Source: an uncultured Christensenellaceae bacterium (GTDB taxonomy: Bacteria > Bacillota > Clostridia > Christensenellales > UBA3700). Taken from it: 64,000 bases of DNA. Within the stretch, counting starts at the first letter, position 1, and each line of letters begins with the position of its first letter. The stretch spans positions 123,999 through 187,998 of the forward strand of contig CAJUOU010000003.1 in assembly GCA_910588545.1 (NCBI GenBank), in the 5' to 3' direction. The notes below the pieces were generated by a model, which ran no database searches, was not told where the DNA came from, and saw only the letters and a list, made by a program, of their open reading frames with translations. Made by a program: the position numbers and the translations under genes. This document shows positions 45,272 through 54,970 of the stretch, piece by piece.

Positions 45272-45476
45272 AATATACCTCAAATACCATATTAGACTAA
45301 CTCAATCAAATTTATTACTACGCAACTACCATAAAACAACTTTTATATATCTTTTATTACCACATACCTAAAAATAGTTGCAACAATTTTTAACAGTGAT
45401 TTTTTGTGACATTTACAAAAATACTTGTAATATAACCATATATTTTTACGTTTATAATAGTTTTTTACTTAAAATA

Positions 45477-45721
45477 CAAAAACACGGCATAACATAAAGA
45501 CGCTATACCGTGATTCCACTTTAATTCAACAACAAAAAAGTTGTTCTTGTATGCAGATAACGATGCCCCGAGCGACATTTCCTTCGCCTGACTATGTCAA
45601 CGCACTTCACAAAAGCATTTGCAAATAGGCTTCCACCCGACGGCCTATACTCTCTGTTACAATAACTTTAGCTACTCTTTTGACAATTTTGTGGCAAGCC
45701 ACAACCGCCTTATCAAATTGT
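45477..45721 (-). promoter_or_regulatory. T-box riboswitch leader, Cys specifier (UGC), controlling cysE-cysS
   Basis: The minus strand shows a Stem I base TGTCAA...TTGACA, AGAGTAG (GA/K-turn), distal AGAGAG...GGGTGGAA, and a specifier loop with TGC followed by A. The T-box sequence is AATTAAAGTGGAATCACGGTA. The terminator is CACGGTAT...ATGCCGTG followed by TTTTTG. Confidence 0.75.
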
Positions 45722-45727
45722 AATTGA

Positions 45728-45757
45728 ATTATATCATAATATAAATATGTTTGTCAA
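45728..45757 (-). promoter_or_regulatory. Promoter of the T-box-cysES transcript
   Basis: The minus strand reads TTGACA, an 18-nt spacer, then TGaTATAAT (extended -10). Confidence 0.65.
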
Positions 45758-45820
45758 TACTTTTTGGTTACTTGTACTTTGCAGCCCAAATACACATATT
45801 GTTTGAGCGTTGCAGACACT

Positions 45821-48800
45821 TTATACAAGCGATTTTATTGTTTCGCTATCGTTATAATATTTACCGCCGATAGCAATTAATTTTACATCAGTGTAGCCAT
45901 CCAAATCCGCTTTTGAGATAACCAACTCTGTTACCCCCGTACTGATTTCGTAGTCCGATTTATCCACACCCGTAAATACCAACTTATATCTTAATGCGTT
46001 GTCTACTTTATTCCAACTAAACACATAGTTGTCGCCGTCCATCTTAATTTCAAGCGATGGAGCAGCCAAATCAACATTTATAGGGTCGAACTTGGCATAA
46101 GCTTTAGCACTTGAATTAATACCATCTACACTGCTTTTTGCTACAATGATTATAGAGTGGTTACCGGGAGTAGTAAGCAAACTAGCAAACTTAGCCTCAC
46201 CGCTCAAATTAAAGGAAATTTCCTCCCCTGCTTTAACATTGTCATTTTTAATAGTCATTACAATACCATCAAAAACTATCTCGTAAGTTTCGGCAAAATG
46301 CACTGCTTTAAAAGTCAAAACATACTCATTGTTGTTATTTTTATCAACCTTTGGAGTTCCTACTTTATCAAGTGTGATATAGTGTGTGTGTTGTGTAAAG
46401 TAAGGGTCGCTATCTCTTATAAATTCGGGCTCGTCAGAGCGCAATACAATTTTAATCGAGTGGTTGCCTACAGTGTTTAAAACAGTTCCCAAATCAAATA
46501 CGTAGTTCGGTATACCATCGCTGTCCCTGTCTATTGCAAATTCCAAAGGAGTTTCCGCGTTATCAATAGTTACCAAAACTTTGGTAGCTAAACTATCGAT
46601 AGAAGAAAGTTCAAGCGTAGCTTTATCGCCGACTCTTTCGATAACTGCAAATTGAGGAGTCTCAAGCCAATCTATATATTTTTCGTTTTGAACATTGATA
46701 ATCAATGCGTTATTATCTTTCAAACTCTCTTTACTTATCCAAACAGTGTTGGTGCCGATGATTTTTTTGAAACCGCCGTTTTCACTTACGTAAACAAGTT
46801 TACCGCCACTGATTGTACCAAGTTCGCCGCTATTAAAATTGTTGTAAGTAAAGCCTACCAATCTTAGTTCCGATTGCTCGTCCAATACTGCATTACCAAT
46901 ATCGCTGTTTGCACGAACACGCGCATTTTGCAAATTAATGTCGATTTTTGTAGCTTTATTAAATGTAATATCCGAATTTACGGCATTAATACTACTTATA
47001 TTTTCGCCAAAAGCTAGTTGGTCAAAAACGACTTTACTACTTCTTATATTAAACGAATTGTTTGCTTGAATACTACCTATAGAATTGCCTTGAGCAATGC
47101 TGTCAAACTCGATATCATTAGCAGAGACATTTGTCAAAATAGTTATTGTATTTGCATTTTTTATTAACAATTTGCCGTTAACGGTAATTTTACCACCCAA
47201 AGTATACTCTTTGCCCGACTTAACACCAAGCGTCATAGCACCGCCTTTAGGGTTTTCCAACGTAAGGTTACCATTTACTGTCAAAGTTTTTTTGTTTAAA
47301 TCCACATTTAAACCAAGTGTCAAATCGCCGTCAACCGTTATATCCTTTTCCAAATAATACAGTTCCTTTTTGTCCTTGATAGGCTTTGCAAAATCTTCCG
47401 CGCTGCTTATCAATACTTTAGGCGCATTAATAACCAAAATAGGTGTTAAAACAGATACCAAAATAACAACCGCAAGCACAGCAACGGCAATTAAAATTGT
47501 AATAAGCTTTTTCTTTTTAGGGGAAGCTTTGCCTTTTTTATCCCCGCCTTTCTTTTTGCCATTTTTATCTGTGCTTTGCTCATCGCCCTCACTGTTTTGC
47601 TCAATAGGGTCGATTTTTGTTGCATTTTCCGTAGTACTATCATCTACGATAACTATATCGCTGTTTGCATCTTTAACTTCGTCATTGCTGTTTTGTTTGT
47701 CAACAGGAATATCGCTTTCTTTGTCAACCACTTGGTCGTTAACGTTATCAACTTCTGCGACACTTTCATTTATCTCCTGCTCTTCCAAATCATTTTGCTC
47801 GTCTATTACAGCATCGATATTATCTTTTTCTTGCATATCTTCTTCCTTTTGCAAAAACAAATCTACCAATTCATCGCCCGAATTTAGCATAATTCCTGTT
47901 TTTGCACATTCACTTTCAGTATATGCAGAAACACCTTGTTTAATACAAGTGCTGTCGTAAATAATAAACGGAATAGGCTCACTGCTGTGAGTTTTTGTGA
48001 CAAGCGGTGTTGGATGGTCAGGGCATACCAAAATACGCAAGTCCTCGTCCTCGAGCTCGCTCAAAATATATGCTACAACCTTTTCGTCAATAAGCTCGAT
48101 AGATTTTACCTTGCCTTTGCTATCTCCTTGATGTCCGCACTCATCAGGCGCCTCCATGTGAAGATATACATAGTCAAAGCCGTCGCGTATAGCTTGCACG
48201 CAAGCTTGTGCTTTACCCGCAAAATTGGTATGTACAGTGCCTGTAGCACCCTCTACTTCTATAATTTCCATACCGCTTGCAATGCCTATGCCTTTTAGCA
48301 AATCGACAGCGGAAATCACAGCACCCTTCAAGCCGCGTAAGCTCTCAAAGTTAGGAAGAGTAGGTTTGCTACCCTCTCCCCATAGCCAAATGCTGTTTGC
48401 AGGGTTTTTACCGTCTGCTATCCTTTTTAAATTTATAGGGTGGTCTTTTAAAATATCATACGACTTAACCATAAGGTCAAGCATTTTATCTCCGTAAAGA
48501 CCTTTTGGCAAGTAATCGCCAATAACTTTACCGCTAATGTCATGCGGAGGTGTGTATTCCGTACCGCGCTCGCCGTTATGTTTAATCAAACAGTGTCTGT
48601 AACTTACACCGCTGTAAAAAGCAAACTCGTCATCTCCAAGCGCCTCTTGAACAAAGCTGATAAGCTCTGCTGCCTCTTCGGTAGAAATTTCGCCCGCACT
48701 GTAGTCCAGCATGCTTTTATCTGCATAGTTTTCTTCCTCGGACAAAGTAACAAGGTTACATCTTACAGCCAAATCACTGTCCGCCATATCAACACCTATA

Positions 48801-49072
48801 CTTAGTGCCTCCAAAGGTGACCTGCCGCTGTAATACTTTAACGGAGAATATCCCATAACCGACAAATTGGCAACATCACTGCCGGGTTTTATGCCGTCGG
48901 GAACAGTCTTGCACATACCGCAAATTGCCTTTTGTGCCAAGCTGTCAATATTAGGCTTGTATGCAACCTCAAGAGGGGTCATACCGCCTAGTGCGTCCGA
49001 TGGCATATCTGCCATTCCGTCCCCTAAAATCACAATATATTTCATATCATACCTACCTTTGGCATACGCCAA
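45821..49072 (-). CDS. Fusion protein: ApgM-type cofactor-independent phosphoglycerate mutase-family domain, acidic linker, one TM helix, then an extracellular beta-helix/Ig-like repeat region
   Basis: A single 1083-aa ORF. The likely start is MKYIVILGDGMAD at 49045 (SD AGGTAGG). Residues ~10-415 match the COG3635/ApgM pattern (PGSDVANLSVMGY, YSGVSYRHCL, PPHDISGK, HMEAPDECGH, CPDHPTPL). These are followed by a ~100-aa D/E/N-rich linker, KKKGGDKKGKASPKKKK, the TM LITILIAVAVLAVVILVSVLTPILVI (about 47430-47510), and 530 aa of repeats. Confidence 0.8.
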   Translation of the reverse strand: MAYAKGRYDMKYIVILGDGMADMPSDALGGMTPLEVAYKPNIDSLAQKAICGMCKTVPDGIKPGSDVANLSVMGYSPLKYYSGRSPLEALSIGVDMADSDLAVRCNLVTLSEEENYADKSMLDYSAGEISTEEAAELISFVQEALGDDEFAFYSGVSYRHCLIKHNGERGTEYTPPHDISGKVIGDYLPKGLYGDKMLDLMVKSYDILKDHPINLKRIADGKNPANSIWLWGEGSKPTLPNFESLRGLKGAVISAVDLLKGIGIASGMEIIEVEGATGTVHTNFAGKAQACVQAIRDGFDYVYLHMEAPDECGHQGDSKGKVKSIELIDEKVVAYILSELEDEDLRILVCPDHPTPLVTKTHSSEPIPFIIYDSTCIKQGVSAYTESECAKTGIMLNSGDELVDLFLQKEEDMQEKDNIDAVIDEQNDLEEQEINESVAEVDNVNDQVVDKESDIPVDKQNSNDEVKDANSDIVIVDDSTTENATKIDPIEQNSEGDEQSTDKNGKKKGGDKKGKASPKKKKLITILIAVAVLAVVILVSVLTPILVINAPKVLISSAEDFAKPIKDKKELYYLEKDITVDGDLTLGLNVDLNKKTLTVNGNLTLENPKGGAMTLGVKSGKEYTLGGKITVNGKLLIKNANTITILTNVSANDIEFDSIAQGNSIGSIQANNSFNIRSSKVVFDQLAFGENISSINAVNSDITFNKATKIDINLQNARVRANSDIGNAVLDEQSELRLVGFTYNNFNSGELGTISGGKLVYVSENGGFKKIIGTNTVWISKESLKDNNALIINVQNEKYIDWLETPQFAVIERVGDKATLELSSIDSLATKVLVTIDNAETPLEFAIDRDSDGIPNYVFDLGTVLNTVGNHSIKIVLRSDEPEFIRDSDPYFTQHTHYITLDKVGTPKVDKNNNNEYVLTFKAVHFAETYEIVFDGIVMTIKNDNVKAGEEISFNLSGEAKFASLLTTPGNHSIIIVAKSSVDGINSSAKAYAKFDPINVDLAAPSLEIKMDGDNYVFSWNKVDNALRYKLVFTGVDKSDYEISTGVTELVISKADLDGYTDVKLIAIGGKYYNDSETIKSLV

Positions 49073-49279
49073 AAAAGATTTTTTGTTGTTTAAATGTATG
49101 TATTAATTATATTTATTAAAAATACCATATAAACAAAATAGCATCTAACATATTATATTAATATTATAATAAGTATATAAATACAATTATATTTTATTTA
49201 TACATTTTAATTATACACTCAAATAACCATTAAGTCAAGAAAATTAAATATCGCAAGTAAACGTAAGCCAAAACATCTT

Positions 49280-49352: not shown

Positions 49353-50318
49353 TTACTTTTTATAATACTTTTGATTACGATTGTTTGGCATATCGGGATA
49401 AGTCATAGCGATTAAGCCTTTTTCTAATGCAGGTTTCAAATAACTTTCGCGGAGAGTTTGCTTACGAGTAAGCCCAAGTTTAGCCATAAGTTCATTTGCA
49501 CTTTGTGGTTCGTAATCGATTACACCCATTAATCGTTCAATATTTTCAGGAAGTTTTTCGTCTTTCAGCTCACAAAGGCTATCGTAAATAATTTGCAACA
49601 AAAATTCCACAAATACGCTTGAATCCACACTGCTATCGGCACAAGCAAGACATTTGTAATATTCCTTTTGCCTTGATTTTATAAGAGTTTCTATAGGCAA
49701 ATAAATGAATATAGGATGATAAGTAGATAAAAGCAAAGTTTGCCACAAACGCCCCATCCTGCCATTTCCGTCTTGAAAAGGATGTATAAATTCAAACTCA
49801 TAATGAAAAACACATGACTTTATTAAAATATGCAGTTCGCTTTGTTCAACCCATTGCAAAAGGTTATGAATATGCCCTTTTACCATGTGTGCAGGTGGAG
49901 CTAAATGCACAAGCCTATCTCCCTCAAAAACACCTACACTACCTGTACGAAATTTGCCTGCCTCGCATACAAGCGATTGCATCATTAACTTATGTGCTTG
50001 TAGCAAATCAGAAATACTGTAAGGATTAAAAGATAAAATATGTTCGTATGCCTCAAAAGCATTTTTAACTTCCTGTATTTCAGACGGCATACCCAATATT
50101 CTTTTACCATTTACAATGGCCGTAACCTGCTCAATACTTAAAGTATTATTTTCTATAGCTAGCGACGAATGAATTGTTTTTATCCGATTTTCGCGACGTA
50201 AACGAATATCTGGAACAGGTCTATTGTCATATTTAAATTTTCCTATTATTTCGCTTATTTTAGCCACTAAGTTAACAATTTTTGTATTTAAATTAAAAGG
50301 CGGTTTATACTCTTCCAT
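49353..50318 (-). CDS. Class-II Fic (AMPylase-type) protein with N-terminal inhibitory helix and C-terminal wHTH
   Basis: The Fic motif is HPFQDGNGRMGR. The inhibitory motif (S/T)xxxE(G/N) reads SLAIEN. 321 aa. SD is AAGGAG. Confidence 0.9.
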   Translation of the reverse strand: MEEYKPPFNLNTKIVNLVAKISEIIGKFKYDNRPVPDIRLRRENRIKTIHSSLAIENNTLSIEQVTAIVNGKRILGMPSEIQEVKNAFEAYEHILSFNPYSISDLLQAHKLMMQSLVCEAGKFRTGSVGVFEGDRLVHLAPPAHMVKGHIHNLLQWVEQSELHILIKSCVFHYEFEFIHPFQDGNGRMGRLWQTLLLSTYHPIFIYLPIETLIKSRQKEYYKCLACADSSVDSSVFVEFLLQIIYDSLCELKDEKLPENIERLMGVIDYEPQSANELMAKLGLTRKQTLRESYLKPALEKGLIAMTYPDMPNNRNQKYYKK

Positions 50319-50469: not shown

Positions 50470-53400
50470 TTAGTTAATTCTTTTGATAATCATAATTTCG
50501 TCAAATACGTAATCCTCAACTTGTAAGAATGTTGCGATTTCCGCATTGTTACCAAATCTGCACTCAATTTCCTTTTCAGGGATTACCATACTAATTTGAT
50601 ATACATTGCCTTGTCTTACATATTGAGTAAAGTCAGAAGCATTAAAGCCATTGATTGTTAGATTAGGCTTATTTGTTTCTGTATCATATTCTGCATCTAC
50701 TTTACCATATACAAATGTAGCACTTATGTAATAAATACCGTCCAACAAGAAAGACTCGTATTTCATTGATTTTTCTTTAACAACACCGGGGAAAGTAGCA
50801 ATATTTTCAACTTTCTCGATATTCAAATCGGTAATAGCATAAATTACCGATGGCTGTTCGCCAACATCAACGCGCGCACTATTTACCAAATATGTTGTAT
50901 TAGCCTCCAATGTTATAGGAGCACCATAATCCATAAATACGGAATTTTTATTGTCGTAAACTACTTTAACTTTAGGAGCATCAGCAGTCTCTTCAAACAA
51001 AGCCTTAAATTCTACAACTTTGTTCACTTCATCCTTTGATACTTCTTCCCAGCCTTTAAATATCCAACCCATTTCATTAGGCAATCTGTATTCTGCATCG
51101 TATGCCGGGATATGATAATAACATTCTCTCTTTAATTCGTTGTAGTTCGCACGATAAATATGTTTCCAAGGCTTTGCCGCCATGTCGATATCTTCATAAA
51201 CAGCTGTTAAAGTAAAGTTTTCTTGAACTTTTAACGAATATTTAGGAAGATAAGTCAAATAGCTGCCGTCTTTTCTTTGCCAACCTACAAAAATTTCACC
51301 TTCTTTGGCAGCAGGAGCGTCCAAATAAACTTTATCACCATATTTATAGTCGGTTTTTTCCACTATATCAACACCATCATCGATAGATACTGTATAAAAT
51401 CTTTCTGCATAATCGACAAATGCAATTTCTTTCAAACTATCATCGGTAGCTGTATAAGTTGCAGTCATTAAGCCGTTATTGTCATTCCAACTAATACCTG
51501 TAATTTCGTTGCCGTTTTTATCTATTAGTTTTACGGCACTTGCAGTAAAGTGGCTATCGTCCAATCTTGCAGTGATGGTAATTGTACGTTTTTGAGCGTT
51601 TTTATCTGCATTTCCAAAATCAAAGTTGCTCATAAAGTTGTACTCACCGCCTACGGCTGCACCATTTATATAAATACTTGGGTGTACTTTTACAGTGTGA
51701 GGCTTGATTACCGCTGCAAAATAACTTCCTATCTCTTCTAGTACCATATGACCGTTGCTAAGCTCTACTTCTTGATACAAAATATAGTTGTTTGTAGATG
51801 GTCTTAATAATTGTCTGCCCGCAATATTTAGTTTAATGCTAACACCTTCGTTATATCCTGTATCTTGCCACATCATTTGTTCGTTAGCAGCAAATCCGGA
51901 GTATACACCTGCCCTATCGTCGGTCATTTTATTAAAGGAAACATACGCATTTCCGAAAATAGTTGTTTCTCCTCGTTTGTAACCTGCAGAAGTTCTAACC
52001 AATAAACTTCTTTTTTGGATAGTAATGGTTCTTGACATACTATCGTTAATAACATTATTCAAAAGTACGACAACTTTTTCCTGCTCGTCACTGTAAGCAA
52101 CGGCATGTTCTCTATCGCCGTTATCGTCACAATAAAGCTTTACTGCTCTTCCGTTAAAAACATTCATAGAGTTTTTAAGGTCTCCTACGTTTATAACTCG
52201 CAATCCTTTATCGTAAAGCTGACCATTTATTTTCATTTTCAATTCGTATGTAGTACCATCGTAATACAAAGGAGAATCTACACCGCCATTTTTAGCCATT
52301 CTGGTCTGGTCGGACATTTCCATCCATCTTACGCCGTTGGTATCGGCAACCTCTCCATTGCTAGCCATCTTATAAAATCCTATTTCGCCGGTACTATTTA
52401 TACCTACTTCGATTTCCGAGGTTGTAGCTGCATCCGGATAGTTGGTTTTTACAATAATGCCCGACTCTAAGTTAGAGAATGTTGGAGAGCTATACAAAGT
52501 CCACAAAATTTTACCTTGAGGTACAAAAATCACTACACCTTGACCATCGTGATTGAAAAAGTAAGGTATTGCAACACCATTGTTACCGTTATTTCTTCCG
52601 TTTGTTGTAAGAATTGCCCTTTCTCCGCAATCTCCGTAACCTTGATTGTATGCACTTCCGCCACCTTCGTTACCCTCCTTATTGGTACCGCCTGTAGCGT
52701 TCATATAAATCATTGTTCCGGGCAAAGGTCCTTCCGCAATATAAATATTCTTCATTTGGTCTACGTATTCGCCGTCGCCTGTACCGCCACTTGAGCCCTC
52801 TGCTATCATACAATCCAAATTGCCGGATACCATTGCAGTTGTTACGCTAGCACCTGAGTTAACACCTATAATACCACCTATCTTTCTATAGCACTTATAA
52901 GGTCCTCTATTTGCTCCGTTTTGATGGGTTTTTATATAGCCATGTAATCTACTATTATTCTCAAATTTAGCATATAGGTTGTTAAGTTTTGCACCATTTG
53001 CAACATAACCAGCTATACCACCAATCAAAGTTGAGCCCGAATTTCTATAGGTTTTAACCGGGAAGGTACCTGACCAATATCCCGACCTACCTTCTGCATA
53101 TAGCTTGCTATTAGTTCCAAAAATTGCAGTTGCATTGCTTATAGTTCCACCTCTGCTTGCACCTACAACAAGTCCTAATAATATAGCTCCGTTACAACCT
53201 GATTTAGAAAAAGTATCGTCTCTATCTATCCCCTCGTGAGAAGAAACATATAATTGCTTATCGGCAGCCAATTCCACAACTACGTTATCTATATCGCCGC
53301 CGCTGTTATAGCCCACTAGACCGCCAAAGGCTATATGCGCATCTAATCTACCCTCATTATTATTTACACTGCCGGTATCTCTATATGTTATTTTATGATT

Positions 53401-54039
53401 CCATGGGATATAAAATTTAAAGTTAAACAATTTACCGCCTGTGCCAAGCTCGTTAAGCATACCGCCAAAGCAATGGTAAGCTACAGGATACGGATTACCA
53501 CTATTATCCGGCATTTCATATCCAGGTATATCTTTTGCTGTTACATGAGGTCTTTGACCTACTGATTGAGCATGATCACAGGCTATAATATCCGGACCGC
53601 CGCCTTCTAAAGTTACTGTATATCCGCATCCGTCAAACCATTTTGTAAACTTACCCACGCTGCCGGGTGCAAGACCCGCATAAGTTGAGTTTGTTCCCCA
53701 ATCCAAGGTAACATTAGCGGTCAAATATCCGCTTTTGCCGGAATAACTACCCTCTTGTTTTAAAAAACTTTGTAATTGAGTGCCGTTGCTTATAGCAACC
53801 CAATCGGTTGATTCCACATAACCGGAACTGTTTATGTACCTTTCTTGGTCGCCAACACCGCCCAAATAGTTATTTTCGGTATAGCCCTCGTTAAGAACAG
53901 GCTGTACTGTATCCAAATAAGTGCCATTGCTGATATCCGACTTGTTTAATGTTAACACACCAAACAAAGCCAAAATCAAAGACAATGTAAGCATTATACT
54001 GATACAAATACCGAATATCCTTGTCTTTCTTCTTTCCAT
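50470..54039 (-). CDS. Large membrane-anchored surface protein with GLUG motifs and C-terminal Listeria-Bacteroides (Flg_new) repeats
   Basis: The N-terminal signal-anchor is IFGICISIMLTLSLILALFGVL. GLUG-like units include GGLVGYNSGGDIDNVVV, IGGIAGYVANGAKLNNLYA and IGGIIGVNSGASVTTAMV. Flg_new-like units include EGEIFVGWQRKDGSY...FTLTAVYE and GWIFKGWEEV....FKALFE. Confidence 0.8.
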   Translation of the reverse strand: MERRKTRIFGICISIMLTLSLILALFGVLTLNKSDISNGTYLDTVQPVLNEGYTENNYLGGVGDQERYINSSGYVESTDWVAISNGTQLQSFLKQEGSYSGKSGYLTANVTLDWGTNSTYAGLAPGSVGKFTKWFDGCGYTVTLEGGGPDIIACDHAQSVGQRPHVTAKDIPGYEMPDNSGNPYPVAYHCFGGMLNELGTGGKLFNFKFYIPWNHKITYRDTGSVNNNEGRLDAHIAFGGLVGYNSGGDIDNVVVELAADKQLYVSSHEGIDRDDTFSKSGCNGAILLGLVVGASRGGTISNATAIFGTNSKLYAEGRSGYWSGTFPVKTYRNSGSTLIGGIAGYVANGAKLNNLYAKFENNSRLHGYIKTHQNGANRGPYKCYRKIGGIIGVNSGASVTTAMVSGNLDCMIAEGSSGGTGDGEYVDQMKNIYIAEGPLPGTMIYMNATGGTNKEGNEGGGSAYNQGYGDCGERAILTTNGRNNGNNGVAIPYFFNHDGQGVVIFVPQGKILWTLYSSPTFSNLESGIIVKTNYPDAATTSEIEVGINSTGEIGFYKMASNGEVADTNGVRWMEMSDQTRMAKNGGVDSPLYYDGTTYELKMKINGQLYDKGLRVINVGDLKNSMNVFNGRAVKLYCDDNGDREHAVAYSDEQEKVVVLLNNVINDSMSRTITIQKRSLLVRTSAGYKRGETTIFGNAYVSFNKMTDDRAGVYSGFAANEQMMWQDTGYNEGVSIKLNIAGRQLLRPSTNNYILYQEVELSNGHMVLEEIGSYFAAVIKPHTVKVHPSIYINGAAVGGEYNFMSNFDFGNADKNAQKRTITITARLDDSHFTASAVKLIDKNGNEITGISWNDNNGLMTATYTATDDSLKEIAFVDYAERFYTVSIDDGVDIVEKTDYKYGDKVYLDAPAAKEGEIFVGWQRKDGSYLTYLPKYSLKVQENFTLTAVYEDIDMAAKPWKHIYRANYNELKRECYYHIPAYDAEYRLPNEMGWIFKGWEEVSKDEVNKVVEFKALFEETADAPKVKVVYDNKNSVFMDYGAPITLEANTTYLVNSARVDVGEQPSVIYAITDLNIEKVENIATFPGVVKEKSMKYESFLLDGIYYISATFVYGKVDAEYDTETNKPNLTINGFNASDFTQYVRQGNVYQISMVIPEKEIECRFGNNAEIATFLQVEDYVFDEIMIIKRIN

Positions 54040-54424: not shown

Positions 54425-54970
54425 AGTATCAGCCTTTTTCAAGCAAAGAACATCGGTTTACTTGACCCGATTATTTTGATACCTATTTTTATACTCGATT
54501 TCCTTTGCATACATCCGTTTAACGATGGCAACGGAGGATTAAGCAGATTGCTAACTACCCTTTTGCTTTATCAAAACGACTTTTTTGTTGGCAAATATAT
54601 AAGTATTGAAAGAAAAATAGAACAAAATAAGGAATCATACTATGTTGCACTTGAAAAAAGCAATATGGGCTGGCAGGACAGCACAAACGACCCTATGCCT
54701 TTTGTAAACTTCATTTTAAATATTTTGCTTGCGGCTTATAAAGATTTTGAGGAACGCGTAGACCTAGTAGGCTTAAAGCAAAAAAATATTAACATTATAA
54801 AAAATGCGATTAAAAAAACTTTAGGCAAATTTACAAAAAATAAATTGATGGAGTTGTGCCCTACAGCAAGTAAAAGCAGTATAGAAAATTGCCTAAAAAC
54901 TTTGGTGGAAAGTAACGAAATAACACGCTACGGTAAAGGAAAAAATACTTACTACACCAAAAACTGTTGA
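54425..54970 (+). pseudogene. 5'-truncated Fic-family remnant with a degenerate active-site motif
   Basis: The frame is open only from 54425, and the track ORF starts at TTG 54476. The motif reads HPFNDGNGGLSR, with the first Arg of HxFx(D/E)GNGRxxR replaced by Gly. The usual ~150-200 aa N-terminal region is absent, while the C-terminal wHTH-like part is retained. Confidence 0.6.

Follow-up and report, generated by a model that had tools for sequence, protein, structure and literature searches.

A probable homoserine phosphotransferase joined to a predicted surface protein in one open reading frame of gut Clostridia

Introduction

Two ApgM-like proteins of the TIGR02535 type, BT2402 and DET_RS08350, complement an E. 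coli thrB mutant and have been named HomK, and the mutase-type names that databases give them are wrong (bioRxiv 10.1101/2024.10.14.618325). A Glu residue (E299 of BT2402) marks HomK, whereas mutases nearly always have Lys at that position (bioRxiv 10.1101/2024.10.14.618325, GapMind 2026). The phosphate donor of HomK is unknown (bioRxiv 10.1101/2024.10.14.618325). Here we describe a gene in a 64,000-nucleotide stretch of DNA from an uncultured Christensenellaceae bacterium (GCA_910588545.1, contig CAJUOU010000003.1, positions 123,999 to 187,998 of the forward strand; the whole stretch is called the window, and coordinates refer to it) in which a full-length domain of this family opens a much longer reading frame. 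The domain shares the ApgM fold, Ser56, the metal ligands and the specificity Glu with HomK (also ThrB2 or TIGR02535; BT2402 of Bacteroides thetaiotaomicron). Described HomK proteins, however, are soluble and ~400 residues long, whereas the window protein adds an acidic tether, a transmembrane (TM) helix and a predicted ectodomain of 525 residues. The archaeal-type ApgM mutases (PDB 2zkt, 3idd and 3kd8) agree with the window domain in fold and in metal and Ser chemistry, but they are not membrane-linked, and the Lys of their LHFK/VNIK motif is replaced by Glu here. Our literature search returned no description of a long or membrane-bound HomK or ApgM.

Two other kinds of system are close to this gene. 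In Rosetta-stone fusion or fission, as here, the same parts occur in relatives as one open reading frame (ORF) or as two that overlap or abut, and the states switch repeatedly; the usual cases concern two soluble enzymes of one pathway, whereas the present one would join an amino-acid-pathway enzyme to a surface protein across the membrane. Firmicute surface beta-helix/FN3 proteins (HxuA, HMW1, SRRP and tapirin, and FN3 stalks) resemble the C-terminal half in having a right-handed beta-helix followed by tandem FN3 modules, an N-terminal signal-anchor helix and fast evolution. Unlike them, the window protein has no SLH, LPXTG or Pfam domain in this half and carries a long acidic, predictedly cytoplasmic tail, and its ectodomain has no significant match to any one of their families (best PDB E = 0.2).

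Results

A single transcribed frame spans the enzyme and the surface domain

The gene lies on the reverse strand as a single unbroken frame (45821-49072), counted in the ORF listing as 1083 codons from a TTG. The start codon is likely to be the ATG at 49045 rather than the TTG, because AAAGGTAGG precedes this ATG, from which the protein begins MKYIVILGDG, and because a homolog with 98% identity (P0002, 1075 residues) begins at the same place with the same N-terminus. The probable gene therefore runs from 45821 to 49045 and encodes 1074 residues plus a stop.

The frame was followed across the junction of enzyme and linker in assembled contigs, as opposed to raw reads, of both DNA and RNA. In Logan DNA contigs from four runs, each of a different study, the interval 47300-48300 is covered without indels and with at most one substitution; a single contig covers it in three of the runs, and in the fragmented fourth (X14) one contig spans the junction. 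The runs that contain the window sequence are mostly mouse-gut and fecal metagenomes. Two metatranscriptome contigs from mouse gut, of 3690 nucleotides (45465-49133) and 3652 nucleotides (45465-49095), cover the whole ORF with no gaps. They show 32 substitutions and no gap relative to the window, and therefore a closely related strain, 99% identical, transcribes the same open frame. Their 5′ ends (49133 and 49095) coincide with or fall just downstream of promoter-like sites found by consensus scan only (49106-49181, reverse strand; TTTATA-18-TATAAT at 49181-49152 and TTTATA-16-TATAAT at 49133-49106), and their 3′ end (45465) lies just beyond a hairpin that is the terminator of a T-box leader. 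The initial annotation had read one uninterrupted ORF joining an enzyme to a surface domain, and with the frame open in the DNA contigs of four studies and in RNA contigs, the fusion is confirmed as real and not an artefact.

Fused and split forms of the same pair in relatives

A homology search restricted by length gave 151 related clusters. All 117 HomK proteins of at least 800 residues carry the same ectodomain family, and many fused homologs can be aligned across 99% of the query, with 36-40% identity. When the ectodomain only was used as query, an exhaustive search also returned proteins of ~590-800 residues, in which an acidic tail, a Lys cluster and a TM helix precede the same ectodomain and no further domain is present; the ectodomains of fused and split forms align end to end. 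A homK gene of 400-406 residues stands directly upstream of the tail/TM/ectodomain gene in nine of the nine split forms with readable contigs (L006/L007, L008/L009, L010, L013, L014, L015, L016, L017 and L095). In the split junctions that we read, homK ends in ...F(L/I)KE with a Shine-Dalgarno (SD) sequence, AAGGAG, within its last codons, followed by the stop; the downstream ATG comes 1-10 nucleotides after this stop or overlaps it by 4 nucleotides as ATGA. This is the arrangement of translationally coupled genes. The genes around the pair differ between lineages while the adjacency of the pair itself is kept. A comparison of fused with split orthologs had been proposed initially, with the prospect that all of them might be two separate genes; both states turn out to be common, and that prospect does not hold.

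To place these states on a phylogeny, we built a tree of 128 HomK domains (IQ-TREE, LG+G4, SH-aLRT support). One clade (SH-aLRT 98) includes all 45 fused and 8 split rows, with organism names of uncultured gut Clostridia of the Christensenellales type. It also includes a 22-row subclade (Christensenellaceae and Ca. Coproplasma) with homK but no partner within 4 kb; of the 65 solo rows in the tree, 21 are inside the clade. HomK outside the clade is solitary (Acetivibrio, Ruminiclostridium, Anaerotruncus, Lachnospiraceae and others). Fused and split rows are interleaved: the tree needs ten fused/non-fused and six split/non-split changes, and at least five of the former and at least four of the latter are forced by well-supported branches. 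The tree argues that this is a recurrent natural gene fusion and that fused and split forms are orthologous. The relatives' loci were searched with a full-length alignment, which is driven by HomK motifs and returns mostly solitary HomK; a 19-sequence alignment of the ectodomain had no stretch conserved enough to search loci with.

Two further clusters, P0120 and P0121 (640-645 residues), join HomK to an N-terminal multi-pass membrane domain, DUF975 (PF06161), with a Met marking the start of the HomK part. As in the window protein, HomK is covalently joined to an integral membrane protein, but the joined membrane domain is unrelated, crosses the membrane several times and precedes the enzyme, and these fusions are rare (two clusters) and fall outside the clade on the tree. 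By sequence, they represent a second, independent way of tethering HomK to the membrane.

Origin of the junction and a retained internal start

Comparison of present-day junctions suggests how the fusion arose in the window's subclade. In split relatives, the downstream ATG stands one base out of frame, for instance AAC TGA T ATG (L013) and GTC TGA A ATG (L010), and the corresponding junctions of fused genes in the window's subclade are GAA GAT ATG (the window), TGC GAT ATG or AGT GAT ATG. Loss of the T from the TGA stop (TGA T ATG to GAT ATG) would both abolish the stop and restore the frame, giving Asp-Met, and the junction of this subclade fits such a one-base deletion. Loss of a stop codon between two genes, which the initial annotation had listed as one explanation, is thus supported as the evolutionary origin of a fixed and conserved fusion, not as an error.

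The in-frame ATG at 47834-47836 (reverse strand; Met 404 counted from the ATG start) stands at the ancestral start of the membrane-protein gene and would give a product of 671 residues if used. Ahead of it, an SD-like AAGGAAG (47842-47848, reverse strand) appears from the junction comparison to be left over from the ribosome-binding site that served the downstream gene before the fusion. Of the 19 subclade members, 18 have the junction Met, and no other column of the linker reaches 80% conservation. In all six genes compared, the stretch from -14 to -5 before the junction ATG contains an SD-like motif, versus 5 of 105 other in-frame ATGs. Because the old SD and ATG have been retained, we lean, by a modest degree, towards the gene also yielding the 671-residue membrane protein from 47834-47836 besides the fusion; the earlier suggestion of internal initiation with two products is plausible for the window's subclade. 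Older fused clades (FLSKPEETQ... and LLSSESEG...) lack both the SD and the internal Met. They must therefore make the fusion only, which in turn indicates that the fused protein itself is functional.

The enzyme domain carries the HomK signature

The predicted cytoplasmic part is a metalloenzyme domain of the HomK/ApgM fold (47852-49045, reverse strand). Residues 10-408 (TTG numbering) cover the complete ApgM/HomK profile, and PF10143 and PF01676 both match. The domain scores 525.6 bits with NF003242 (cut-off 426), 519.4 bits with TIGR00306 (cut-off 320) and 504.7 bits with TIGR02535 (cut-off 446.3), the last over profile positions 1-397 of 397; NF003242 and TIGR00306 do not discriminate HomK from mutases. 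These end-to-end matches bear out the full-length ApgM-family domain terminating at ...GDELVDLFL that had been read initially. Similarity to 2zkt is clear (E = 2.6e-62) at modest identity (phmmer, 214 bits over ~395 residues).

All 31 fused homologs compared share catalytic Ser56 and D9, D301, H305, D343, H344 and H353, which also occur in the split homK genes and line up with identical residues in 2zkt. The motif LHMEAPDECGH aligns with LHFKPTDAAGH of 2zkt and VNIKATDVAGH of 3idd, which sets Glu298 opposite Lys; its equivalence to E299 of BT2402 rests on this alignment to 2zkt and 3idd. Glu298 is likewise invariant in the 31 fused homologs and is also kept in split homK genes. With Glu at the specificity position and TIGR02535 above its cut-off, the enzyme half is probably a threonine-pathway enzyme, namely a HomK homoserine phosphotransferase that makes O-phosphohomoserine for threonine synthesis, and not a glycolytic mutase. 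The initial annotation had spoken of a central-metabolism enzyme and phosphoglycerate mutase, which is probably wrong for the same two reasons; the homoserine-kinase role that it mentioned for some family members gains from the HomK signature found here.

A predicted tether, membrane anchor and beta-helix/FN3 ectodomain

The enzyme is followed by an acidic Asp/Glu/Asn-rich linker that is presumably disordered (47567-47848, reverse strand; residues 409-502, TTG numbering; 94 residues, net charge -27), by a Lys-rich juxtamembrane stretch, KNGKKKGGDKKGKASPKKKK (47507-47566, reverse strand; residues 503-522, net +10), and by a single TM helix, LITILIAVAVLAVVILVSVLTPILVIN (47426-47506, reverse strand; residues 523-549), predicted from hydropathy and flank charges to be oriented N-in/C-out. 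No segment of the protein other than this helix is strongly hydrophobic (Kyte-Doolittle maximum 3.28). Because the charge is +10 before it versus +2 in the 20 residues after it, the positive-inside rule would place the N-terminal enzyme in the cytoplasm and the C-terminal part outside. One TM helix, positive charge on its N-side and a folded, beta-rich C-terminal part together give a type-II signal-anchor layout. The Lys cluster ahead of the helix is found in the fused and split homologs that we read, and the linker varies widely among homologs in length (~28 to 250 residues) and sequence.

Two other identities were considered and rejected. An extracellular enzyme of the AP superfamily (LtaS/EptA type) does not fit a protein with no signal peptide, in which the enzyme is N-terminal to a signal-anchor helix with +10 on the enzyme side and has a metal-binding Asp on its N-terminal strand. 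An anti-sigma or RsgI-like partner protein does not fit a cytoplasmic part that is only low-complexity acidic sequence without a domain.

AlphaFold2 modeling of residues 559-1083 gave a beta-helix and then three beta-sandwiches, with a mean pLDDT of 89.2. The predicted right-handed, extracellular beta-helix (46667-47362, reverse strand; pLDDT 93.1, pTM 0.88) has no Pfam or NCBIfam match. By AlphaFold2 and Foldseek, the three FN3-like modules occupy 46379-46666, 46079-46378 and, at the C-terminus, 45824-46078 (all reverse strand). The initial annotation had described this half as a linker of ~100 Asp/Glu/Asn-rich residues, a poly-Lys stretch and single TM helix leaving the enzyme in the cytoplasm, and ~540 extracellular residues of beta-helix-like repeats with three Ig/FN3-like modules, and the predictions agree with it throughout.

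In Foldseek searches, the beta-sandwiches match FN3 triplets and the insulin-receptor ectodomain (E ~1e-10), and the FN3 modules dominate the search. The insulin-receptor ectodomain consists of a beta-helical L domain and FN3 domains. Folded alone, the beta-helix had no significant PDB relative and only weak, generic beta-helix matches (adhesins, tailspikes and lyases; best E 0.2); a lyase, hydrolase or other enzymatic role can be neither assigned nor excluded from the predicted fold. The ectodomain and the standalone partners match no Pfam or NCBIfam family, with only sub-threshold matches to fn3 and GH85_C. Identity among homologs is 22-34% for the ectodomain versus 55-65% for HomK. The ectodomain has no conserved polar cluster, and Gly, Pro and hydrophobic residues account for most of the columns that do not vary. 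We infer that it is a binding or adhesin-like surface module.

Two fused homologs, P0025 (1251 residues) and P0119 (1396 residues), are markedly longer and have, by the appearance of their sequences, extra C-terminal FN3-like repeats. The number of FN3 stalk modules thus seems to vary among fused homologs.

Neighboring genes and elements

A T-box leader (RF00230; 45493-45691, reverse strand) sits between the fusion gene and cysE-cysS. Rfam at gathering thresholds gave no match in 42-55 kb, and the leader was found by a permissive search, full-length, at 72 bits (E = 1e-15), below the gathering score of 93. It has a promoter with a perfect TTGACA-18-TGnTATAAT (45757-45728, reverse strand) and a 13-bp terminator hairpin (45512-45483, reverse strand), and is presumably Cys-specific and in control of cysE-cysS.

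Upstream of the fusion gene, 50470-54039 (reverse strand) encodes a protein of 1189 residues that has a TM helix at its N-terminus and matches neither Pfam nor NCBIfam; it is probably another uncharacterized surface protein. Four loci (L001, L091, L092 and L093) have a counterpart of 1228-1269 residues in the same position, matched by position and size and also with no Pfam family. The interval between this large gene and the fusion gene holds a gene for a Fic-domain protein (49353-50318, reverse strand); another ORF, short and Fic-like, is found at 54476-54970 (forward strand). The Fic gene looks like an insertion or rearrangement, since in L001 and L002 it is elsewhere and on the opposite strand. 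Lastly, a divergently transcribed GH2 glycoside hydrolase gene (~800 residues) lies directly upstream of homK in L008, L010, L094 and L095, a recurrent neighbor in several split and fused lineages.

Discussion

Taken together, the open frame, its transcript and the distribution of homologs make it likely that the window gene is a genuine, expressed and conserved fusion of homK with the gene of a type-II membrane protein (acidic tail, Lys cluster, TM helix, beta-helix and three FN3 modules), two genes that are neighbors in relatives and whose products are functionally partnered. In the ancestral state, homK and the membrane-protein gene would have been adjacent and translationally coupled. In the fused state, the enzyme would hang on the cytoplasmic face of the membrane by a flexible tether of ~110 residues, with the beta-helix/FN3 part facing outwards as a module of binding or adhesin-like type, and the mRNA would probably also give the membrane protein of 671 residues by itself. 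We infer a functional link between enzyme and membrane protein because the pair stays adjacent while its neighborhood changes, because the fused and split states switch repeatedly, and because an unrelated DUF975-HomK fusion exists. The partnership could consist of membrane recruitment or of stoichiometric co-production.

Several points weigh against this account. The search that found the homologs was restricted by length, so that fused forms are over-sampled, and the Christensenellaceae/Ca. Coproplasma subclade of 22 rows keeps homK with no partner within 4 kb. The one-base deletion is a reconstruction from present-day junctions, and the SD-like motif overlaps Lys-Glu/Asp codons, so its retention may partly reflect constraint on the protein. 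The topology is drawn solely from the positive-inside rule. As for the enzyme, HomK activity is deduced from a single specificity residue together with a profile score, and the apgM subfamily model TIGR00306 scores slightly above TIGR02535. No hom, thrB or thrC was found among the window ORFs scanned (33 of the 45 ORFs of at least 150 residues), and no threonine-pathway gene appeared in the flanks of the 10 loci inspected. Lastly, the fusion may carry no selective effect, as an enzyme on so long and flexible a linker should not be hampered.

That last point is the core of the main rival explanation. Two co-transcribed and coupled neighbors of unrelated function, one serving threonine synthesis and the other a fast-evolving surface protein, would have fused by a stop loss that did no harm, since a tail so long and disordered allows the tethered enzyme to work, and the fused and split states would since have drifted. 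The high variability of the linker, the low identity of the ectodomain with its mostly Gly, Pro and hydrophobic invariants, the interleaving of fused and split rows on the tree and the subclade with homK alone would all follow from neutral drift. It accounts less well for an adjacency that holds in every split form read despite changing surroundings, for large, deep clades in which every member is fused and the internal Met has gone, and for a membrane fusion of HomK with DUF975 that arose independently. Moreover, among matches over most of its length, the ectodomain family was seen only fused to HomK or, in the nine contigs examined, beside homK, most standalone matches not having been checked for a neighbor. 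We consider a neutral fusion of co-expressed neighbors possible, if rather unlikely.

A more specific form of the partnership can be suggested only tentatively, and we hold it to be doubtful. The beta-helix/FN3 protein may be a dedicated HomK partner that recruits or controls the enzyme at the membrane, by way of its acidic tail where the genes are split and by the covalent link where they are fused, the two making up a two-component module of gut Christensenellales-like Clostridia.

Two further alternatives concern what the enzyme does, and we judge both improbable. The first takes the database name at its word and makes the protein a membrane-tethered, true cofactor-independent phosphoglycerate mutase of glycolysis. 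NCBI does call the homologs by this name, and NF003242 and TIGR00306 both exceed their cut-offs; but the TIGR02535 cut-off is exceeded as well, Glu replaces the Lys of the solved mutases 2zkt and 3idd and of nearly all mutases according to GapMind, and GapMind shows such names to be wrong for BT2402 and DET_RS08350. The second alternative is receptor-like signaling, in which a ligand of the ectodomain would control the cytoplasmic phosphotransferase in the manner of receptor kinases, or in which the enzyme would have been recruited to phosphorylate a substrate in the membrane or envelope rather than homoserine. The layout of beta-helix and three FN3 modules, TM helix and phosphotransferase, which recalls the insulin-receptor ectodomain in the Foldseek matches, and the conservation of the pair as a unit are what such signaling would lead one to expect. 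However, a disordered tether of ~28 to 250 residues cannot pass a conformational signal, and the split forms have no covalent link at all, which makes this mechanism unlikely; there is also no conserved juxtamembrane or dimerization motif, and the active-site residues, including the homoserine-type Glu, are the same as in solitary HomK. The sensor-type fusion raised in the initial annotation is weakened by the same disordered linker and by the many relatives with separate proteins.

An artefact has next to no chance of being the explanation: fused and split relatives differ by an apparent single base, the type of change that errors mimic, but a sequencing or assembly error that deleted a stop or shifted the frame near 47840 (the initial annotation had allowed for a lost stop near 47800) disagrees with independent, indel-free assemblies of four studies that match the window, with the intact frame in RNA of the 99%-identical strain, and with a frame that is open in 19 subclade members (43-98% identity) and in 117 fused proteins overall.

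For annotation, the fusion means that more than 100 protein clusters of 950-1400 residues from gut bacteria, named "cofactor-independent phosphoglycerate mutase", are more likely membrane-tethered HomK proteins with an unannotated surface domain; the database names ignore the C-terminal 670 residues. The beta-helix and FN3 ectodomain folds confidently in prediction and has no Pfam model; it could serve to define a new family. The junction, as reconstructed, shows how one deleted base of a stop codon can fuse coupled genes while keeping an internal start, and if this start is used, two products come from one gene. Should the beta-helix/FN3 protein be a dedicated partner of HomK, the pair would be a previously unrecognized two-component module, and the phosphotransfer of the threonine branch, or a yet-unknown phosphate donor or acceptor, would possibly be linked to cell-surface events. 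The switching between fused and split forms makes the pair a natural Rosetta stone that ties an enzyme of amino-acid biosynthesis to a predicted surface protein. No pathway logic predicts this link, and it therefore points to unknown HomK biology.

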